A stretch of 64,000 bases of DNA from Nitrospirales bacterium (GTDB lineage: Bacteria; Nitrospirota; Nitrospiria; Nitrospirales; UBA8639), in contig OY820905.2 in NCBI GenBank assembly GCA_963555755.3, forward strand, positions 2,144,001 to 2,208,000, given 5' to 3'. The notes below the pieces were generated by a model that was not told the DNA's origin, did not search any database, and saw only the letters and a program-made list of their open reading frames with translations. Position numbers and translations under genes: made by a program. Shown here in pieces: positions 15,913 through 30,398 of the stretch. Within the stretch, counting starts at the first letter, position 1. The number at the start of each line of letters is the position of its first letter.

Positions 15913-16016
15913 GTAGAGTAGAGCACTGGTGCATACATGGAGCTGCTCTCGAACGCTTCGACGCACGCGTCTACCACGGACCATAGCAGTCAGCACTTCC
16001 CAGCGCCCCCTCATCA

Positions 16017-18010
16017 GTAGGGTCGAGGACTGGCGCGCCAACGGTAGGGTTCGGTGGCTCCTCCACCCCTTTCGGAATGGGCCTCAGTCCGACTCCCCTG
16101 GTCACGGTTCCAGTCCCCGCCACCTCAAACCCGGCGTGCTGATTTCCAGCACCGGGCTTTCCTGGATGCTTCACCTCAAGGGTTATGTGACCTATCAGCC
16201 TGGAAGGACTTTCATGCCGACCCGTTGTACCGCACTCGGTAATCTCCATATAAGCCAAGTACCGTGTAGAGCCAAACCTTACTCCACCTCTTCCAGCCAA
16301 AACCTCGACGGTGGCGCACTCGCATCATGTGCCGCCGGACCTTCCGCTCCACCCAATCCTTCACGTAGGATAAACACCGACTCGCATGCCCAATCCGGAA
16401 GTCGTTCACCCAGCCCCGTACGATCGGATTGATCATGGCGATCATCCGTCCCACCGGCTGGGATTGCCCGCGTCGGAACACTTCCTTGAGCTTCCGCAGC
16501 AACGCGGTGCGCCGCTTCACCTTCGGTATGTACTGCGGGCGCCACACTCCACGCCGCGACCGCACACGCCGAAAGTCAAAGCCCAGAAAGCCGAAGCTGC
16601 CTCCCTGACTCAGGTCCACGATTCGGCTCTTCTCCTCATTCACCTGAAGGTCTAATTGGGCCAACGCCTCTCGCAGCTTCCGCTCCGCAACCTGCGCCAG
16701 TTGTGCGTGGCGGCGATAGCCATCCACTAACACGACGAGGTCATCCGCAAACCGGACATACTCGAGATACGTATACTGGCCCTGCCGGGTTGTCTCCTTC
16801 AGCTGCTCCAGCCTCTCATCCACTTCCGTGAGATAGAGGTTGGCCAGCAGCGGGGAAATCACACCCCCTTGAGGCACCCCACGCGGGCCGGACGCCTTGA
16901 CGATGAGTTTCACCAGCCGCAGGATCGCGGGATCCTGGATGCGTCGGGCCACCTTCGCCAGCAGCCGGTCATGCCGCACCGTGTCGAAGAAGGCCGCCAG
17001 ATCCACATCAATCACTCGCGTCTTGTTCTGCACCATCGCCTGAGCCACCCGGCCAATCGCCTGATGGGCTGTCCGTTTCGGTCGATACCCATACGACCCG
17101 TCCCGAAAATCCGCCTCAAAGATCGGTTCCAGCAGGAGCTTGAGCGCTCCCTGTACCACGCGGTCCCGAATCGCGGGTATCCCTAAGACGCGGACTCGTC
17201 CACCGCCTTTCGAAATCTCCACGTGCCGGTTCCGCATCGGTCGGTAGGTCTGCGTGACCAGTTCGTCCCGTAGTCGTGCAAGAAAGGGCTCCACCCCCGT
17301 GGCCTCGATGCCAGCAAACGTCACCCCATCAATGCCGGGGGCTCCGTTGTTTTTCTTGGCCATCGAATAGGCCGCGCGTAGCGTCGCCTCTTTGCACACG
17401 TGGACGTACAAGCCCCACACCCGCCATCGCTTCTCAGCCTTCGCCTTGACGTAGAGCCGCTGTCGCAGGTCTTGCAGTGTAATGGACGCCGTTGTCATCT
17501 CGTCCCTGCCTCCCATGTTGATCACAGCCTACAGCCAGTAGGGCTCCTTTGCTCCACAGGCATGACCCTGCTTCCTCGCTCCTACGAGCCCCTCCGCCAC
17601 CCTCTCGTCTTCGGCTCACTTCCCAGAGAGCTGGTTATAGAGCCGATCTTCCTCCAGGGATTTCTCCCTGGGACGAGGAGGGCTTCTCCAGTTGCGTCGT
17701 CTGTCCTTGCTCCCGTGCTGTCGCTCTCACCCCGCCGGAGTGGCCAGGCGTCTCAGCCTTGGTTCGCCTGTCCATGCCGTCTTCGTCCTACGGACAGGGA
17801 CTCGACCTCCGAGGTTTCATACTTTCGAGGCTACCTCTGCGTTCACTTGCGTTACGGCCCGGGAACTCGCTCACCATCCTCTACGATGGCTTTGTCGATG
17901 GGCTTCAGCGTCTCGGTTTCTCTCCACGCTGCCATCCAAGCTACAGGGCTCAGGCTCTTACCCTGGTGGGCTTGCTTCCCACTGAACAGTCTCGCCTTAC
18001 CTGGACACAC
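16017..18010 (-). mobile_element. Group II intron copy A (1994 bp)
   Basis: 5' GTGTG, DV/DVI and 3' ..CGACCCTAC. Confidence 0.95.
16212..17498 (-). CDS. ltrA: Group II intron reverse transcriptase/maturase (no endonuclease domain)
   Basis: APGIDG, LGIPAIRDRVVQ, PQGGVISPLLAN, RFADD, X domain. Confidence 0.95.
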   Translation of the reverse strand: MTTASITLQDLRQRLYVKAKAEKRWRVWGLYVHVCKEATLRAAYSMAKKNNGAPGIDGVTFAGIEATGVEPFLARLRDELVTQTYRPMRNRHVEISKGGGRVRVLGIPAIRDRVVQGALKLLLEPIFEADFRDGSYGYRPKRTAHQAIGRVAQAMVQNKTRVIDVDLAAFFDTVRHDRLLAKVARRIQDPAILRLVKLIVKASGPRGVPQGGVISPLLANLYLTEVDERLEQLKETTRQGQYTYLEYVRFADDLVVLVDGYRRHAQLAQVAERKLREALAQLDLQVNEEKSRIVDLSQGGSFGFLGFDFRRVRSRRGVWRPQYIPKVKRRTALLRKLKEVFRRGQSQPVGRMIAMINPIVRGWVNDFRIGHASRCLSYVKDWVERKVRRHMMRVRHRRGFGWKRWSKVWLYTVLGLYGDYRVRYNGSA

Positions 18011-20004
18011 GTAGGGTCGAGGACTGGCGCGCCAACGGTAGGGTTCGGTGGCTCCTCCACCCCTTTCGGAATGGGCCTCAGTCCGACTCCCCTGGTCACG
18101 GTTCCAGTCCCCGCCACCTCAAACCCGGCGTGCTGATTTCCAGCACCGGGCTTTCCTGGATGCTTCACCTCAAGGGTTATGTGACCTATCAGCCTGGAAG
18201 GACTTTCATGCCGACCCGTTGTACCGCACTCGGTAATCTCCATATAAGCCAAGTACCGTGTAGAGCCAAACCTTACTCCACCTCTTCCAGCCAAAACCTC
18301 GACGGTGGCGCACTCGCATCATGTGCCGCCGGACCTTCCGCTCCACCCAATCCTTCACGTAGGATAAACACCGACTCGCATGCCCAATCCGGAAGTAGTT
18401 CACCCAGCCCCGTACGATCGGATTGATCATGGCGATCATCCGTCCCACCGGCTGGGATTGCCCGCGTCGGAACACTTCCTTGAGCTTCCGCAGCAACGCG
18501 GTGCGCCGCTTCACCTTCGGTATGTACTGCGGGCGCCACACTCCACGCCGCGACCGCACACGCCGAAAGTCAAAGCCCAGAAAGCCGAAGCTGCCTCCCT
18601 GACTCAGGTCCACGATTCGGCTCTTCTCCTCATTCACCTGAAGGTCTAATTGGGCCAACGCCTCTCGCAGCTTCCGCTCCGCGACCTGCGCCAGTTGTGC
18701 GTGGCGGCGATAGCCATCCACTAACACGACGAGGTCATCCGCAAACCGGACATACTCGAGATACGTATACTGGCCCTGCCGGGTTGTCTCCTTCAGCTGC
18801 TCCAGCCTCTCATCCACTTCCGTGAGATAGAGGTTGGCCAGCAGCGGGGAAATCACACCCCCTTGAGGCACCCCACGCGGGCCGGACGCCTTGACGATGA
18901 GTTTCACCAGCCGCAGGATCGCGGGATCCTGGATGCGTCGGGCCACCTTCGCCAGCAGCCGGTCATGCCGCACCGTGTCGAAGAAGGCCGCCAGATCCAC
19001 ATCAATCACTCGCGTCTTGTTCTGCACCATCGCCTGAGCCACCCGGCCAATCGCCTGGTGGGCTGTCCGTTTCGGTCGATACCCATACGACCCATCACGA
19101 AAATCCGCCTCAAAGATCGGTTCCAGCAGGAGCTTGAGCGCTCCCTGTACCACGCGGTCCCGAATCGCGGGTATCCCTAAGACGCGGACTCGTCCACCGC
19201 CTTTCGAAATCTCCACGTGCCGGTTCCGCATCGGTCGGTAGGTCTGCGTGACCAGTTCGTCCCGTAGTCGTGCAAGAAAGGGCTCCACCCCCGTGGCCTC
19301 GATGCCAGCAAACGTCACCCCATCAATGCCGGGGGCTCCGTTGTTTTTCTTGGCCATCGAATAGGCCGCGCGTAGCGTCGCCTCTTTGCACACGTGGACG
19401 TACAGGCCCCACACCCGCCATCGCTTCTCAGCCTTCGCCTTGACGTAGAGCCGCTGTCGCAGGTCTTGCAGTGTAATGGACGCCGTTGTCATCTCGTCCC
19501 TGCCTCCCATGTTGATCACAGCCTACAGCCAGTAGGGCTCCTTTGCTCCACAGGCATGACCCTGCTTCCTCGCTCCTACGAGCCCCTCCGCCACCCTCTC
19601 GTCTTCGGCTCACTTCCCAGAGAGCTGGTTATAGAGCCGATCTTCCTCCAGGGATTTCTCCCTGGGACGAGGAGGGCTTCTCCAGTTGCGTCGTCTGTCC
19701 TTGCTCCCGTGCTGTCGCTCTCACCCCGCCGGAGTGGCCAGGCGTCTCAGCCTTGGTTCGCCTGTCCATGCCGTCTTCGTCCTACGGACAGGGACTCGAC
19801 CTCCGAGGTTTCATACTTTCGAGGCTACCTCTGCGTTCACTTGCGTTACGGCCCGGGAACTCGCTCACCATCCTCTACGATGGCTTTGTCGATGGGCTTC
19901 AGCGTCTCGGTTTCTCTCCACGCTGCCATCCAAGCTACAGGGCTCAGGCTCTTACCCTGGTGGGCTTGCTTCCCACTGAACAGTCTCGCCTTACCTGGAC
20001 ACAC
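18011..20004 (-). mobile_element. Group II intron copy B (1994 bp)
   Basis: Abuts copies A and C with no exon base between. Confidence 0.95.
18206..19492 (-). CDS. ltrA: Group II intron RT/maturase
   Basis: Near-identical to copy A. Confidence 0.95.
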   Translation of the reverse strand: MTTASITLQDLRQRLYVKAKAEKRWRVWGLYVHVCKEATLRAAYSMAKKNNGAPGIDGVTFAGIEATGVEPFLARLRDELVTQTYRPMRNRHVEISKGGGRVRVLGIPAIRDRVVQGALKLLLEPIFEADFRDGSYGYRPKRTAHQAIGRVAQAMVQNKTRVIDVDLAAFFDTVRHDRLLAKVARRIQDPAILRLVKLIVKASGPRGVPQGGVISPLLANLYLTEVDERLEQLKETTRQGQYTYLEYVRFADDLVVLVDGYRRHAQLAQVAERKLREALAQLDLQVNEEKSRIVDLSQGGSFGFLGFDFRRVRSRRGVWRPQYIPKVKRRTALLRKLKEVFRRGQSQPVGRMIAMINPIVRGWVNYFRIGHASRCLSYVKDWVERKVRRHMMRVRHRRGFGWKRWSKVWLYTVLGLYGDYRVRYNGSA

Positions 20005-21998
20005 GTAGGGTCGAGGACTGGCGCGCCAACGGTAGGGGTCGGTGGCTCCTCCACCCCTTTCAGAGTGGGCCTCAATCCGACTCCCCTGGTCACGGTTCCA
20101 GTCCCCGCCACCTCAAACCCGGCGTGCTGATTTCCAGCACCGGGCTTTCCTGGATGCTTCACCTCAAGGGTTATGTGACCTATCAGCCTGGAAGGACTTT
20201 CATGCCGACCCGTTGTACCGCACTCGGTAATCTCCATATAAGCCAAGTACCGTGTAGAGCCAAACCTTACTCCACCTCTTCCAGCCAAAACCTCGACGGT
20301 GGCGCACTCGCATCATGTGCCGCCGGACCTTCCGCTCCACCCAATCCTTCACGTAGGATAAACACCGACTCGCATGCCCAATCCGGAAGTAGTTCACCCA
20401 GCCCCGTACGATCGGATTGATCATGGCGATCATCCGTCCCACCGGCTGGGATTGCCCGCGTCGGAACACTTCCTTGAGCTTCCGCAGCAACGCGGTGCGC
20501 CGCTTCACCTTCGGTATGTACTGCGGGCGCCACACTCCACGCCGCGACCGCACACGCCGAAAGTCAAAGCCCAGAAAGCCGAAGCTGCCTCCCTGACTCA
20601 GGTCCACGATCCGGCTCTTCTCCTCATTCACCTGAAGGTCTAATTGGGCCAACGCCTCTCGCAGCTTCCGCTCCGCAACCTGCGCCAGTCGTGCGTGGCG
20701 GCGATAGCCATCCACTAACACGACGAGGTCATCCGCAAACCGGACATACTCGAGATACGTATACTGGCCCTGCCGGGTTGTCTCCTTCAGCTGCTCCAGC
20801 CTCTCATCCACTTCCGTGAGATAGAGGTTGGCCAGCAGCGGGGAAATCACACCCCCTTGAGGCACCCCACGCGGGCCGGACGCCTTGACGATGAGTTTCA
20901 CCAGCCGCAGGATCGCGGGATCCTGGATGCGTCGGGCCACCTTCGCCAGCAGCCGGTCATGCCGCACCGTGTCGAAGAAGGCCGCCAGATCCACATCAAT
21001 CACTCGCGTCTTGTTCTGCACCATCGCCTGAGCCACCCGGCCAATCGCCTGATGGGCTGTCCGTTTCGGTCGATACCCATACGACCCGTCCCGAAAATCC
21101 GCCTCAAAGATCGGTTCCAGCAGGAGCTTGAGCGCTCCCTGTACCACGCGGTCCCGAATCGCGGGTATCCCTAAGACGCGGACTCGTCCACCGCCTTTCG
21201 AAATCTCCACGTGCCGGTTCCGCATCGGTCGGTAGGTCTGCGTGACCAGTTCGTCCCGTAGTCGTGCAAGAAAGGGCTCCACCCCCGTGGCCTCGATGCC
21301 AGCAAACGTCACCCCATCAATGCCGGGGGCTCCGTTGTTCTTCTTCGCCATCGCATAGGCCGCGCGTAGCGTCGCCTCTTTGCACACGTGGACGTACAGG
21401 CCCCACACCCGCCATCGCTTCTCAGCCTTCGCCTTGACGTAGAGCCGCTGTCGCAGGTCTTGCAGTGTAATGGACGCCGTTGTCATCTCGTCCCTGCCTC
21501 CCATGTTGATCACAGCCTACAGCCAGTAGGGCTCCTTTGCTCCACAGGCATTACCCTGCTTCCTCGCTCCTACGAGCCCCTCCGCCACCCTCTCGTCTTC
21601 GACTCACTTCCCAGAGAGCTGGTTATAGAGCCGATCTTCCTCCAGGGATTTCTCCCTGGGACGAGGAGGGCTTCTCCAGTTGCGTCGTCTGTCCTTGCTC
21701 CCGTGCTGTCGCTCTCACCCCGCCGGAGTGGCCAGGCGTCTCAGCCTTGGTTCGCCTGTCCATGCCGTCTTCGTCCTACGGACAGGGACTCGACCTCCGA
21801 GGTTTCATACTTTCGAGGCTACCTCTGCGTTCACTTGCGTTACGGCCCGGGAACTCGCTCACCATCCTCTACGATGGCTTTGTCGATGGGCTTCAGCGTC
21901 TCGGTTTCTCTCCACGCTGCCATCCAAGCTACAGGGCTCCGGCTCTTACCCTGGTGGGCTTGCTTCCCACTGAACAGTCTCGCCTTACCTGGACACAC
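20005..21998 (-). mobile_element. Group II intron copy C (1994 bp)
   Basis: 5' GTGTG follows ACGCACGGAT of the outer intron DV. Confidence 0.95.
20200..21486 (-). CDS. ltrA: Group II intron RT/maturase
   Basis: Near-identical, with a few private substitutions. Confidence 0.95.
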   Translation of the reverse strand: MTTASITLQDLRQRLYVKAKAEKRWRVWGLYVHVCKEATLRAAYAMAKKNNGAPGIDGVTFAGIEATGVEPFLARLRDELVTQTYRPMRNRHVEISKGGGRVRVLGIPAIRDRVVQGALKLLLEPIFEADFRDGSYGYRPKRTAHQAIGRVAQAMVQNKTRVIDVDLAAFFDTVRHDRLLAKVARRIQDPAILRLVKLIVKASGPRGVPQGGVISPLLANLYLTEVDERLEQLKETTRQGQYTYLEYVRFADDLVVLVDGYRRHARLAQVAERKLREALAQLDLQVNEEKSRIVDLSQGGSFGFLGFDFRRVRSRRGVWRPQYIPKVKRRTALLRKLKEVFRRGQSQPVGRMIAMINPIVRGWVNYFRIGHASRCLSYVKDWVERKVRRHMMRVRHRRGFGWKRWSKVWLYTVLGLYGDYRVRYNGSA

Positions 21999-22701
21999 AT
22001 CCGTGCGTATGGTTTTCCCATACACGGCTTTCCGATGTTCTTCTTCCAGCGGCATGCGTCTGTCATCAGGCAATAGCCACATTCAGACTTGGCCTTCTGA
22101 GATAGTTTCCTCTGTAGTGTCCTGATCGTGCTCGGGGTGGTTAGCGCAATGGCAATCCCCTGATCCTCCACTCGTCGGAAACGTGAACAAAGTAGGGTCC
22201 CTTCCCTCGGGCCGGGTTGTGTTGTCCCAGGCTCTCCAACGGTACTATGAACCCCTCCGACTCCCACGACGGCCCGCAGCGATTTCGGTATCCCTTATAC
22301 GCCTCAGTTGCTGGTTCTGCGCCAGCACCGTCGCGGGTCTCCCGTCCTGCACGGTGTCTCTTCCGCCACATGCCATCCCTGCTACCCCGGAAGATCCTGA
22401 GGGTGGGTGTTCGTTCTACTCCCTCAAACGGCGGCCTTCCCCTTCTGACCACAGGGTCGGCATCTCCAATTCGTTTACGAGGCTACATCTAGGTTCGCTT
22501 GCGCTACGGCCTGCGGCTTTGCCCATGGGAAACTTCAACCCCTGATTACTCAGACGCTGCTTCCTGGTGCTAGAAAGGTGTACGAACAACTCCTTTCGCG
22601 GGACTTCAACCCGCTAGACACACCGCCGATGACGGCATGCGGTCAAGTCACTTGCTTCATGATAAAGAAAAGGAAAAGGGGTCAGAAAAGGGGTCAGAAA
22701 A

Positions 22702-23734
22702 GGGGTCAAGTCACTTGCTTCATGATAAAAAAGTAGTTAGACTCTGGTCATGCCTCGACCTCCTCGGATGGAATACGAGCATGCGGTGTATCATGTCATG
22801 AATCGTGGCCGGGCTCGGCACCCGGTGTTTCATGATGCCCGGTACTATCGAGCCTTTCTCGACACGTTGGCCGAGCTGCATACCCGCTTCCAGGGTGTGA
22901 TTCATGCCTATTGCTTGATGGGCAATCACTATCATGTCTTGCTGGAAACTCCCAGGGCCAATCTCAGTCGCATGATGCGCCATCTTAACGGGGTGTATAC
23001 GCAACGGCATAATCGTCTCAAACGTACTGATGGCTCTTTGTTTCGAGGCCGCTATAAAGCCATTTTGGTGGAGCACGATGCCTATTTGCTCCACGTGTCC
23101 CGGTATATCCATCGAAACCCTCTTGACGGCATACGGCCGCTGGTCACGAATTTGTCTGATTATCCCTGGTCGAGCTATCCGACATATATCGGTCAAGCGA
23201 AGCCGGCACCGTGGTTGTGCCGGGAACCGACGTATCGCCTGCTTGGGCATGTGCACCGGTATCGCGGGTATGCTCGCTACGTGCTAGAGGGCAACGATAA
23301 AGAAATCGAGTATTTTTCCCAACGGGGTAATAGGGCGGCCATTATGGGAGGGCAGGAGTTCAAATCTTGGGTCTATGACGAATTACTGCCGGATCTTGAA
23401 GCGGAGGAGAAAGGGCAGGTGATCCAGCCGAGTCTTGCAATCGACACTATGATCACTGGGGTGGCCAAGGCCTATCGCACGACACCAGACCGGCTGACCA
23501 TGGTAGTGAAAGGGCCGCAAAAAGGGAATGAGGCTCGGAAACTGGCGATGTATCTGTGTCAGGAATTAGCGGATGTGAAACTTCAGGACATTGCGCCCTG
23601 CTTCCATCTGCGTCATAGCGGTTCGGTGAGTTTTATCACCCACCAGGTCAGAAAGAAGAAACGAGACGAGAAGGGATTTGCCGCTAGAATGAACGAGGTG
23701 ATTGAAAGTATTCTGAAGCAATCGACTTGACCCC
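22702..23734 (+). mobile_element. HUH Y1 (RAYT-like) transposase element copy 1 with 21-bp TIRs (ORF 22750-23730)
   Basis: YHVMNRG, HAYCLMGNHYHVLL, YIHRNP, YPWSSY, C-terminal DnaA-like HTH. TIR GGGGTCAAGTCnnTTGCTTCA (19/21). Confidence 0.9.
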
Positions 23735-24368: not shown

Positions 24369-27300
24369 TTGTTGAGTGGTCATAGTAGAAGTCAGCTAAT
24401 GTTATTTTTATTAACTTTGACATCTTTAGGATTTCTTGGATTTTTGTCTTATGATGTTTTTGCTGAACCTACATTCACACTTGAGTGGGATGGAACTTCA
24501 CAACATGATAATACCGTAAATGTTGGTGACACTATTGCTTGGGAATGGATTGGTCTTCAACATAATTTAGTATGGGATGACGAAACAGGAGTTCCTCTAC
24601 CTGATCCATCGTTTGGATTTCCAGATATCGTTGATGAACCAAATACCTACGCATTTACATTTACTGAACCTGGAGAATACTATTATCACTGTACAATTCA
24701 TTCAGAGCAATCTGGTGTTGTAACTGTTCTACCGTCGCCTATCACACTTGAGTGGGATGGAACTTCACAACATGATAATACCGTAAATGTTGGTGACACT
24801 ATTGCTTGGGAATGGATTGGTCTTCAACATAATTTAGTATGGGATGACGAAACAGGAGTTCCTCTACCTGATCCATCGTTTGGATTTCCAGATATCGTTG
24901 ATGAACCAAATACCTACGCATTTACATTTACTGAACCTGGAGAATACAACTATCACTGTACAGTCCATGAAGAACAATTTGGAGTTGTAATTGTTGAATC
25001 ATCTGAAGAACCTGTACTTGCTTGGGCTGGATCTTCACAACATGATAATACCGTAAATGTTGGTGATACACTTACTTGGGAATGGGGTGGAAATAGTCAT
25101 AATTTAGTATGGGATCCAGAATCAGGAGTTCCTCTACCTGATCCATCATTTGGATTTCCAGATATTGTTAATGCTCCAAATACATACGCATTTACATTTA
25201 CTGAACCTGGACAATACTTCTATCACTGTGAAGTTCACTCACAACAATTTGGAGTTGTAACTGTTCTACCGCCAGCAAGTTGGCCAAACTGGGGAGGGGA
25301 CTTGTCTAACACAAAGAATGCCTCAACCGAATCTCAACTGTCTCCTGATAATATTGACGCTCTCATAGAAGATTGGATATACACCACTGATGGCTCTGTA
25401 GTTTCATTTGTTACTGTTCAAGGAAATGATGCATACTTTGTTAGTAGAGTAACTCCTGATGGTCAATCTTTTCCTGCAGCAGATGCAATGCTTAATTCTA
25501 TTAATCGTATAACTGGAGAACTCAATTGGGCATTCCCAATTTCAAGTTATGTTGAATCCTCATCTAATCCATCTCTTGTAAATGATGATGCTAGAGTCTC
25601 ACCTGCAATACAAGATGATATTTTAGTTGTGGGTACACAATATGCAGCAAATGGTGCAACTGTCTTTGCAGTTGACAGAAACACTGGCGATGAACTTTGG
25701 GAAACTGCAGTAGATGATCACATATATTCTATAATCACAAGCTCTCCTACAATTTATCAGGATAGAGTCTATGTTGGTGTTTCTTCTCTTGAAGAATTAT
25801 GGGCAGGAATTACCCAAGATCCGCGATGGGTTTGGTCAACAGAGGTCCTTTGGCAAAACCCACGTGTTCGCGCCATTGCTTAGTCAATGGTCTGGCTGGA
25901 TTTGAGCCACCTCCCAGAGTTGCCTGTCCTGACATGGGATCGACCAGCCTTTTGGGCAGACCACTCCCTTCCTGCTTCCTTCTTCTCTTGTGCTGTCCCC
26001 TGCCCCGGCTTAATAAGGCTGGGCAGCTTCTGCACAGCGCGTCCGAATCTCCTCACACAAGCCCCACAGCTGTTGTTGCACTTTGAGGATCACGGCACCA
26101 GCATGCCGGACCACTTTGCCCGCCACCTGATACAGCCGCCAACGCACCGTGCGCACTTGGCACTGGCTCCAGGCATAGGGCAACGCCAACAACTTGAACA
26201 ACACAAACAGGTTGTAGGCTAACACGCCAATGCGAAAGAAGACGGCATTGGCCGCGAAGGTCCCACACGGAAGCCGTTCCATGCCAAAGCCACTCTTCAG
26301 TTCTTTGATGCGATTCTCGCTGGTCTCGCCCCGCTGGTTGTACCATCGTACAATCTCCTCAGGGGTTCCATCTCGGTTCGTCGCAATCAGCGTGTAGCGC
26401 AGGCTGGGGGCCTCGGGGGCAAACAGATCCTGTTGCACGGGCCGTCGCAATACGATGAGGCGAAAGGCTTGCTTGGTCTTCGCCATACAATGTACCGTTT
26501 CAGCGAGATGGCCATCTCGGTAGGGTTGCCACTGGCTCTCAGGGATGGCGGCAATGACGGCCTGCACGGCCGTATCCTGCACGCCCCCAATCGCAAACGT
26601 CACGTTGTGCTCCTCGCACCAATTGAACAACTCCGCTTGGTACGCCGCACTATCCGCCCGCACATGAGCAATCCGTTTGCCTTTGGGCATCTGCGCCGCA
26701 CACGCCTGGGTGAATTCAAGATTGCGGGACGCCGGAGCCTCATTCCCTTCACGAAACTCCTCCCCAAGCACCAGCCCATTTTCCGCCAGGTGCCCCAGCA
26801 TCGGCAGATAGCCTCGCTCCCCCTTGTACGTCCATTTGGCTGCCTGCTTCTCCGCGACAATCTGCGTGGCATCAAGATCGAGGGTATAGTCCGTGCGCGG
26901 TTCCCGCTTCAACGCCCGCCGGATCTGCTGCTGATTGACGACGGCTAAACTTGCTAAACCATCCTTCTCCCCCATGCGTCGCAGCCAATCGCCCGTGGCA
27001 TCGGCACTGGGAACCACGGGGAGTCGCAGCACGGCCCGCAAGCCCGCATCCTCGCGAATCTGGCGCAGATCCTCCAGCGTCCGGCCCCCGCCATGCAACA
27101 TCAGCAGCAGGGGCTCGACAAATTGGGCGGGGTGATAGCCGATGCGGCTCCCGGGCGCGGGCAAGGCCGCATTGAGTTGCCGGGGCACATTCATGGCTTG
27201 GAGAAACTCCCCGAACAGCGCCAGCCCGCCATGAGCGGTGAGCTGTTCGTCGGTGGGCTCAAGCTTGAACGGAAGAACGGTTTGTGGCATCATTCGTTTC

Positions 27301-29116
27301 ACCTCGTTGGTGAGGAGTGGCTAAGGGGGTAGGCACCCGTATCTTAGCAAATCAACGAGGTTTTTTTATGCCCAAAATAAATCCATCGCGGATCTTGGGA
27401 ATTATTCCTGACTATGATTGTTGTACCTTTATTGGTAGTTTAGTGTCCCTTGATTTGAATACTGGTGATATATTGTGGAAATCTTATACTGCACCACTTT
27501 TACCTGAAGGTACACTTCCTAGTGATTGGTATTCAGGTAATGCTGTTTGGGGAAGCTCACCATCAATTGATCCATCACGAAATTCTGTATACATAGCAAC
27601 AGGTAACAACTATCAAACCCCAAATGACTTGGAAGAATGTATTGCAAATGCAGAAACATTACCTACTCCTGAAGAAGTTGAAGCTGCAAAACTGATTTGT
27701 CAAGAAGACATTGATGTTCCAGGAAATCTATTTGATGCTATAGTCTCTTATGATCTTGATACAGGAGATGTAAACTGGGCTAACAAACTATGGAGTTCAG
27801 ACTCTTGGAATGTTGCTTGCTTCTTGGGAGGTGAAAACTGTCCAGATCCATTTGCACCTGACTATGACTTTGGCCAAGCTCCTATGCTCTTTACAGTGTT
27901 TGTAGATGATGACCCAGTAGATCTAGTAGGTTCCGGTCAAAAGAGTGGAATCTTCTGGGCGCTTGATCGTGATATTGGAGAAATTGTTTGGACTGTTAAT
28001 CCTGGACCTGGAAGTACACTTGGAGGTATGCAATGGGGATCAGCAGTTGATGATCAAAGAGTTTATGGTCAAATAACAGGTACTGATGAAGCAGGACCAT
28101 ATACCATTTTTGATTTTGAAGGTACTCCAACTGTAATTACTGGTGGTTCATGGTGGGCAGTAGATGCTGCAACTGGAGAATTACTTTGGCAAACTGCAGC
28201 ACCTGATGGCAGTTTAACATGGGGACAAGTCAGCGTAGCTAATGGATTATTATTTGCTGGAACTTTGGGTAATGCTCAAGATGGTATGATGGTTATTATG
28301 GATGCTGCAACAGGTGATATCCTTTGGACAAAAGACATTGGCGGTTCTGTTTCTGCAGCTCCTACAATTGTTAATGGCCAACTAATCTGGCCAACTGGAT
28401 ATGGAGGCTTTGGCGGTTCTTACAATAATGAAATATTTGCATTTAGTTTAGAATCAATTGGAATTGATTTTGATAATGATGGATTTACTGAAGAAGAAGA
28501 TTGTGATGATAATAATCCTGAGATAAATCCAGATGCATTTGATATTCCAAATAACGGCATTGATGAAAATTGTGATGGAGTAGATGCACAAGGTGGTGGT
28601 GTGGACCTTAGTGGAGTATTAGATGCAATTGAAGATGCAAAGACTATGATACTTGATGCACTAGGATTACTTGATATAAAATTAGATCAAGTTTCTGAAA
28701 AGATTGACAACATTGATACAGGTTCTGATAGTGTAGAACGAGTTTCAGTAACTGTGAAGATGCCAGGTGTTGTAATGAAACCAGGTGAAGTGTTTGTACT
28801 ATTAGATACAACTGGTTCTGGAACTTTAGAAACAGTTCATGTTGCAGTTAATTTACCATGTTCAAAAAATAACGAGCCAAGATTCTCAGTACTGGCAGGA
28901 GTTGCAGGTGGTTCACTAGAACCAGTAATTAGCAGTTCTGATGACTTTACTGGATTTAAGGGACCAAAGAAGACCTGCACATTCCATGATACAATACTTG
29001 CAAGTGAAGTTCCAGGTGGAGAAATTACTGATGTTATTTTAATCAATGATGGAAACAAAAAATCTACTTTACCAAGATATTCAGTAGTAACCATAACTGG
29101 TACATATTCTCCTTGA
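24369..29116 (+). pseudogene. 3x cupredoxin + PQQ-type beta-propeller dehydrogenase + Asp/Cys metal-binding repeat + C-terminal domain (~1051 aa), interrupted by IS1380
   Basis: Three H..CxxH..Q blue-copper repeats, WPNWGGD, YDCCTFIGS, DYDFGQAP, GGMQWG, DxDNDGF..DCDD..NGIDENCDG. Halves rejoin in frame (LWAGI|IPDYDCC). Strongly AT-rich. Confidence 0.85.
25813..27399 (-). mobile_element. Complete IS1380-family element (transposase 26010-27302)
   Basis: Perfect TIR CCCAAGATCCGCGATGG, 5-bp TSD AATTA, LDLDAT, VRADSA, YNQRGETSENRIKELK. Confidence 0.95.
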
Positions 29117-29365: not shown

Positions 29366-30398
29366 GGGGTCAAGTCACTTGCTTCATGATAAAAAAGTAG
29401 TTAGACTCTGGTCATGCCTCGACCTCCTCGGATGGAATACGAGCATGCGGTGTATCATGTCATGAATCGTGGCCGGGCTCGGCACCCGGTGTTTCATGAT
29501 GCCCGGTACTATCGAGCCTTTCTCGACACGTTGGCCGAGCTGCATACCCGCTTCCAGGGTGTGATTCATGCCTATTGCTTGATGGGCAATCACTATCATG
29601 TCTTGCTGGAAACTCCCAGGGCCAATCTCAGTCGCATGATGCGCCATCTTAACGGGGTGTATACGCAACGGCATAATCGTCTCAAACGTACTGATGGCTC
29701 TTTGTTTCGAGGCCGCTATAAAGCCATTTTGGTGGAGCACGATGCCTATTTGCTCCACGTGTCCCGGTATATCCATCGAAACCCTCTTGACGGCATACGG
29801 CCGCTGGTCACGAATTTGTCTGATTATCCCTGGTCGAGCTATCCGACATATATCGGTCAAGCGAAGCCGGCACCGTGGTTGTGCCGGGAACCGACGTATC
29901 GCCTGCTTGGGCATGTGCACCGGTATCGTGGGTATGCTCGCTACGTGCTAGAGGGCAACGATAAAGAAATCGAGTATTTTTACCAACGGGGCAATAGGGC
30001 GGCCATTATGGGAGGGCAGGAGTTCAAATCTTGGGTCTATGACGAATTACTGCCGGATCTTGAAGCGGAGGAGAAAGGGCAGGTGATCCAGCCGAGTCTT
30101 GCAATCGACACTATTATCACTGGGGTGGCCAAGGCCTATCGCACGACACCAGACCGGCTGACCATGGTAGTGAAAGGGCCGCAAAAAGGGAATGAGGCTC
30201 GGAAACTGGCGATGTATCTGTGTCAGGAATTAGCGGATGTGAAACTTCAGGACATTGCGCCCTGCTTCCATCTGCGTCATAGCGGTTCGGTGAGTTTTAT
30301 CACCCACCAGGTCAGAAAGAAGAAACGAGACGAGAAGGGATTTGCCGCTAGAATGAACGAGGTGATTGAAAGTATTCTGAAGCAATCGACTTGACCCC
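29366..30398 (+). mobile_element. HUH Y1 (RAYT-like) transposase element copy 2 (ORF 29414-30394)
   Basis: 1033 bp, near-identical to copy 1. Confidence 0.9.

Follow-up and report, generated by a model that had tools for sequence, protein, structure and literature searches.

Group II introns that home into other introns are known: landing sites have been reported at the RYADD motif (PMC2504315) and in domain IV (DIV; PMC2882425, PMC4476101), and nested arrays have been described (PMC4424553). The comparisons made here draw on the accessible portions of the cited papers. Class F, or g2, introns (Toro and Martinez-Abarca 2013, PMC3552965; Nagy et al. 2013, PMC3753933) resemble the intron described below in their endonuclease-less (En-less) RT-maturase, FADD motif, length of ~1.99 kb, 5-nt domain V (DV) loop and long domain VI (DVI), and those portions of the two reports give no DV target. 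B.th.I3 of pBMB67 is not inserted in a DV and falls outside the DV-targeting clade; the name B.th.I3 denotes two different introns in PMC2504315 and PMC3552965. The RYADD homers (M.a.I5, UA.I3, P.l.I2 and the B.th.I3 of Tourasse and Kolsto; PMC2504315) are also En-less and build nests, with a conserved catalytic motif of other introns as their permanent landing place, but they aim at a protein motif, whereas the guest intron here sits in an RNA catalytic hairpin that it must also carry itself.

Other nested systems share further features with this locus. The Methanosarcina arrays (PMC4424553) are likewise built by En-less introns, yet they are nested rather than arranged head-to-tail at one junction. 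In the Thermosynechococcus elongatus twintrons (Mohr et al. 2010, PMC2882425), EBS divergence has likewise led to families with new targets, insertion between families and spread of ORF-less forms; their insertion site, however, is in DIV of a closely related intron, in the space separating two start codons, whereas the hosts here belong to several distant classes. In the Trichodesmium Tr.e.I7/I8 twintron (PMC4649490) and the lycophyte cox1i1149g2 (PMC7049729) the inner intron splices first, and the idea that insertion into a host-essential site preserves the guest has been stated with them, but they represent single loci or self-insertion, unlike the DV-homing lineage described here. Twintrons are thus already known. 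Full-text literature searches and the accessible portions of PMC4028801, PMC8919778, PMC8637638, PMC7306698, PMC3245105, PMC3753933, PMC7049729 and PMC4649490 gave no description of a DV-homing lineage, DV self-avoidance or head-to-tail stacking. So far as these sources go the DV landing site appears undescribed, and older literature may hold a mention.

Results

The window, that is, the whole 64,000-nt stretch of DNA analysed, contains three head-to-tail copies of a 1994-nt group II intron on the minus strand (16017-21998), a three-copy array at one site that the first-pass annotation had not noticed. These guests sit one base before the end of the DV of a host intron, which in its interrupted form spans 15913-22640. 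The features of the locus, all on the minus strand, are as follows.

16017..18010, minus: inner intron copy 3, the 3'-most copy and the one flagged earlier; 1994 nt, ends GTGTG...CTAC; Rfam RF02003 at 17847-17984
18011..20004, minus: inner intron copy 2; 1994 nt, head-to-tail with copies 1 and 3
20005..21998, minus: inner intron copy 1, adjoining the host 5' exon; 16 site differences from copy 2 and 14 from copy 3
16212..17498, minus: RT/maturase ORF of copy 3; 428 aa from ATG, FADD motif, without endonuclease
18206-19519 and 20200-21513, minus: ORFs that contain the RT/maturase of the other two copies
16127..16159, minus: own DV of copy 3; intact, AGC triad, CCGG/CCGG lower stem, 5-nt loop
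18121-18153 and 20115-20147, minus: own DVs of the other two copies, the same element as in copy 3
21999..22030, minus: host DV up to the cut, which falls one base before the DV end; contains IBS1 and IBS2
15913..16016, minus: last host DV base (IBS3) and host DVI with the 3' end
21999..22640, minus: 5' part of the host intron; RF02005; 5' boundary approximate
17785..17801, minus: EBS1 stem-loop of copy 3; 4-bp stem and 9-nt loop, placed by exon covariation, consensus fold and stem pairs
17789-17795, minus: EBS1 proper (GUCCGUA) of copy 3; same element at 19783-19789 and 21777-21783
17818..17822, minus: EBS2 (GUAUG), pairing 5/5 with host DV positions -13 to -9; also at 19812-19816 and 21806-21810
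17727, minus: EBS3 (A), pairing with the host DV +1 T; also at 19721 and 21715

The host, with a total length of ~750 nt, derives through deletion of the ORF from an RT-carrying intron found elsewhere in the same genome (G000:C1:230290-228317), and a conserved 17-nt stretch precedes GTGTGT in its 5' part. Across the host family (the window copy at 22624-22640, minus strand, and the other copies in the genome), a conserved stretch of 16-17 nt lies before the GTRTGT start, and the family inserts at TGACC|CC, a repeat bordering the IS200-like (Y1) transposase genes at 22750-23730 and 29414-30394. These two Y1 transposase gene copies bracket an AT-rich cupredoxin/PQQ beta-propeller gene (24369-29116), which is apparently split by a DDE transposase element at ~25810-27400. 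The guest is present in all seven full-length ORF-deleted hosts of this genome (G000:C1 2357, 1381885, 1691099, 2166640, 2226040, 2543602 and 2586075), and one of the three longer, parent-type host copies is empty.

The guest has the ends GUGYG...AY, a DV with an AGC triad and a DVI with a bulged A, and its EBS1, EBS2 and EBS3 pair with the exons, as seen in covariation and per-site pairing; it is thus a group II intron with IIB-like features. Its 428-aa protein contains PF00078 and PF08388 only, corresponding to RT and maturase with no D/En region, and reads FADD in place of YADD in RT5, a part of the g2 definition (PMC3552965); among the locus proteins in our tree, 130 have FADD and 15 YADD. 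The protein is 49% identical to that of B.th.I3 of pBMB67 and groups in a clade with it (SH-aLRT 100), apart from the g1 and g3 references, B.th.I3 being the single g2 reference used. The 5-nt DV loop, alpha' in a terminal loop and long DVI agree with the features of IIF RNA (PMC3753933), alpha/alpha' having been assigned by eye from complementarity. The tree rules out class E or g3 for the guest and CL1 for the host; class C (IIC), with its short EBS1, lack of EBS2 and terminator-hairpin target, is rejected because a 7-nt EBS1 and an EBS2 covary with the exon, and a RYADD-homing twintron former is rejected because the target is DV and not the RT active-site codons. Contigs from RNA runs cover the intron and contain neither a spliced nor a circular joint, which is uninformative either way on splicing; a skip in two runs of unrecorded type, carrying the other DV allele, most plausibly represents an unoccupied host at a different locus.

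The minus strand at 17801-17785 reads GTCC-CTGTCCGTA-GGAC, as the first-pass annotation had stated. GUCCGU (17795-17790) forms five Watson-Crick pairs and one G-U pair with ACGGAU, and ACGGAT is indeed the 3' strand of the interrupted DV at 21999-22030. The annotation had placed the flagged copy directly beside this exon, which holds for copy 1 (20005-21998) and not for copy 3, which directly follows the end of copy 2. It had also proposed that the loop is EBS1, and the hairpin is the EBS1 of an En-less class F (g2-like) group II intron, as exon covariation, junction pairing far above that of shuffles and a consensus fold with the loop unpaired all indicate.

To compare this hairpin across the family, we fetched 80 genome, 79 metagenome and 6 plasmid loci; loop and 5' junction were both present in 108 (fetched loci together with the window's intron), leaving 103 after removal of duplicates. 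The 159 genome and metagenome loci are a sample of the clade, estimated at about 6200 and 21000 stretches in the two collections. The loop pairs with the upstream exon at at least five of six positions in 96 of these 103 junctions. At the 66 junctions not called DV, which carry 50 different loops, mean loop-exon pairing is 5.64/6, compared with 2.74 in 2000 shuffles (maximum 3.27). Scanning all columns over 57 non-DV junctions, we found that intron positions 216-222 covary with exon -1 to -7 and positions 189-192 with exon -9 to -12, and that intron column 284 is the best tracker of exon +1; these segments are therefore EBS1, EBS2 and EBS3, respectively, with the fifth EBS2 pair taken from sequence reading. 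Across the family, EBS1 pairing reaches exon -7, beyond the hexamer noticed initially. A consensus fold of 70 sequences forms the EBS1 hairpin and leaves EBS1 and EBS2 unpaired, and the four stem pairs are kept in 86, 84, 85 and 83 of 86 distinct hairpins; folding of the single sequence does not produce the hairpin and places the loop in another helix.

At the window site, EBS2 pairs at 5/5, EBS1 at 6/7 and EBS3 at 1/1 positions, compared with three, three and one in the intron's own DV. This own DV, which ends GCACGCCGGGTT, carries a compensated lower-stem change, so the guide hexamer finds only 3/6 pairs there, in line with the poor pairing first reported.

Across the genome, the intron has 14 5' junctions: 11 lie in the DV of other introns, 1 in a coding gene and 2 within tandems, so that 11 of 12 primary insertions are in DV (nine whole DVs and two DV 3' halves). 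For the window's intron, the earlier description as specialised on the DV of other introns is therefore apt. None of the 14 junctions lies after an own DV, although 15 intact own DVs are listed. EBS1 variants correspond to host DV variants: ACGGTT holds every one of the three copies with the loop GACCGU, and the nine primary GUCCGU copies are at ACGGAT (six), ACGGAC (one) and the mismatched ACGGTT (two). EBS3 and exon +1 mismatch at 2 of the 11 primary sites with a known 3' flank. When 21 empty DVs were scored against the main allele, 19 gave at most 10/13 pairs and two gave 12. Host DV 3' halves at G000:C1 1024304, 1251094 and 775480 are joined to an identical foreign end sequence, and two of the three are still targeted. 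Separately, a 60-nt piece of the guest intron (G000:C1:943594-943653) stops exactly at its DV end.

DV targeting is common across the clade and not universal. Distinct clade junctions fall in DV in 43 of 100 cases and outside it in 57, with L002, L024 and L041 set to DV by eye, L089 kept as non-DV and thirteen distant loci treated as outgroup and left out of these counts. The DV targeting that the first-pass annotation had suggested is thus supported for this genome and for many relatives. In the related genome G042, a host-DV pattern is present at 82 of 93 junctions and nine are tandem; 40 host DVs are empty, and there is no insertion in an own DV against 104 intact own DVs. G043 has 15 of 18 junctions in DV, with two loop variants, each at the matching DV type, and the junctions of G045 (5/5), G046 (4/4) and G041 (3/3) are all in DV; G048 has just 2 of 15 and G359 none of three examined, DV-like loops nonetheless. 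For hosts with an RT, the nearest references come from several classes, and many hosts have no upstream RT.

Several relatives have other sites. Subclade members with the loop CTTCAT (L015, L016, L022, L101, L094, L138) use one conserved non-DV motif, and the 3' flank of these sites appears to resemble the 5' region of another intron class. In a CGC-triad subclade (L043, L055, L038, L045, L135, L139, L141 and others), EBS1 varies freely, and a T-rich motif is kept ~10-13 bases upstream of the sites. At L029, the own DV is interrupted in its upper stem, downstream of the ORF, apparently by a different intron, so that DV would offer a second place of insertion. The family has also given rise to widespread ORF-less derivatives, with forms of 927 and 909 nt in G042 and of 818 nt in G048, the latter mostly at one repeated non-DV site. 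Among 40 related genomes, there was no close relative at E <= 1e-100, and viral contigs contained no real family member; a phylum-wide pattern search gave a match in 22 of 401 genomes, many at the level of a reversed-pattern control, and a second gave 2 of 151.

The guest's own DV was compared with its targets across 33 distinct DV targeters: the target pairs at 5.67/6 positions and the own DV at 3.45, the own DV being lower in 32, while in four of the 33 it still pairs at 5/6. A canonical [AC]CGG stem occurs in 1 of 119 clade loci, compared with 22 of 28 DVs of other introns; this baseline was drawn from 60 loci fetched by protein family alone, of which 32 gave no DV, with two family loci left out. 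On the g2 side, outgroup DVs are canonical in 5 of 7, the two non-canonical introns being more distant. Both trees support the clade well and have DV targeters in every basal branch; the closest outgroup rows for which data exist combine canonical DVs with targets of other kinds, which places the change of target and the change of DV on the same branch. This coincidence is one event; because the base of the clade is an open fork in the tree, ancestral DV targeting is something we infer.

These observations can be explained if the DV change is evolved self-avoidance, with members of the family in an arms race in which DV stems diversify and EBS1 loops are reprogrammed to follow, a reading that we regard as tenable but just short of probable. 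Consistent with it, the 67 distinct clade DVs contain 15 different DV hexamers, almost none canonical; in the sister group, DVs are canonical and the targets differ; and relatives have turned onto family-type DVs. A relative with the loop AACGCA (L128) is inserted in the family-type DV TGCGTT with 6/6 pairs, L028 pairs 12/12 in a family member with a different DV while its own DV is of the window intron's type, L050 and L356 pair 5/6 in DVs ending like that of the window's intron, and L163 and L114 are inserted in B.th.I3-like hosts. The altered clade DV therefore gives no safety from relatives, as L128, L028, L050 and L356 demonstrate, and these insertions fit an arms race. Against such tuning, shuffling own DVs among the DV targeters had no effect (P = 0.67 for EBS1; P = 0.28 with EBS2, three gapped rows dropped), own DVs pairing no worse than those of other family members, so there is no sign of tuning at the level of lineages. 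The altered DV is moreover found clade-wide, including in subclades that do not aim at DV, and has a single origin; the inner introns of L128, L050 and L356 lack own-DV sequence in our data, and L140 combines a canonical DV with a DV-type EBS1. Self-avoidance, as first proposed, thus holds as an outcome, in that no own-DV insertion was found in this genome or against the 104 own DVs of G042, and the permutations do not bear it out as an adaptation.

The three copies of the array are three distinct alleles, differing pairwise at 6, 14 and 16 sites; copy 2 differs from three other loci by at most one site, and copy 1 from another by at most three. A further insertion at the retained 5' exon, mismatched at +1, is likely the simpler account of such tandems. 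It requires an EBS3 mismatch, which the tandem junction indeed has, and a comparable +1 mismatch is the one seen at 2 of 11 primary sites. Recombination with circular cDNA, rolling-circle copying of a circular intron or misassembly might instead have produced the array, and we consider such an origin unlikely. Class F introns do form circles in vitro (PMC3753933), the junction has the EBS3 mismatch, and gene conversion takes place, given that some alleles are common to copies 1 and 3. The 6-16 sites that separate the copies, and the near-identity of copies 1 and 2 to other loci, argue otherwise. So do the mixed tandems of G042, all five of which consist of the pure 927-nt ORF-less type followed by the long type, the second copy having only long-type markers from base 37 on (3' end checked in one); no crossover is seen after base 36 in any of the five, and circle recombination, which would require each of them to have crossed over within the first 36 bases, is less simple. 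The tandem junction is also spanned by 28-30 bases per side in short contigs of three other runs, just under our bridging rule, which speaks weakly against misassembly. On a metagenome contig (L120), an intron 3' end runs into its own 5' end, representing either a tandem or a circular assembly.

Base pairing predicts more sites than are filled. Full EBS2 pairing together with ACGGAY occurs at 41 sites; of the 8 that lie in DV, 6 are occupied, compared with 0 of 33 others, so protein, DNA structure or post-insertion selection must supply the rest. The DV enrichment might stem from selection after insertion rather than from targeting, many matching sites being hit and copies surviving only in dispensable introns. 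These 33 empty sites favour that reading, as do the mostly non-DV copies of G048 and G359 with their DV-type EBS1 and the sole coding-gene copy, in a formate-tetrahydrofolate ligase gene, where EBS1 pairs 7/7 and EBS2 poorly. As the whole explanation it is nonetheless improbable, since EBS1, EBS2 and EBS3 all follow the particular host DV, within and between genomes, and this tracking needs repeated homing at DV; targeting and selection can operate jointly.

Discussion

In the En-less class F (g2-like) intron identified here, all three guides (EBS1, EBS2 and EBS3) match the DV 3' strand of other introns, and we are confident, if not certain, that it homes there by reverse splicing. Its targeting code is well supported; the two GUCCGU copies at mismatched ACGGTT and the two best-scoring DV sites, which are empty, stand against a homing account. 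Since the guides match a foreign DV and not the intron's own, 11 of 12 primary sites are in DV and the three-copy pile-up likely reflects re-insertion, the window's intron probably lives as a parasite of other introns.

We envisage that the guest RNA would reverse-splice into host DNA one base before the DV end, and that the RT would copy the inserted RNA, primed at replication forks as reported for other En-less introns (PMC4424553). Splicing of the host would then be possible only once the guest has spliced out. Since IBS1 and IBS2 are left intact and a +1 mismatch is apparently tolerated, an occupied site could likely be hit again, and repeated hits would build the three-copy stack, with the newest copy beside the 5' exon. 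DV targeting was probably the original habit of the clade, the change in its own DV having arisen on that same branch, and some subclades would later have shifted targets. The full picture of a cross-phylum g2 clade of born DV parasites, which rewrote their own DV stem to escape their own guide, entered a guide-versus-DV arms race and stack head-to-tail, is one we offer tentatively, as somewhat less than an even prospect.

DV is the one sequence common to nearly all group II introns, so an anti-DV guide finds targets permanently at hand wherever a genome is rich in introns; because the parasite also needs a DV, it faces a problem of self and non-self. An occupied homing site is not necessarily immune, and stacked or twintron structures of this kind are, according to the accessible portions of PMC4028801 and PMC8919778, dropped by annotation pipelines. 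Whether the most conserved segment of a ribozyme can diversify under parasite pressure is a question for which this clade provides a natural test case.
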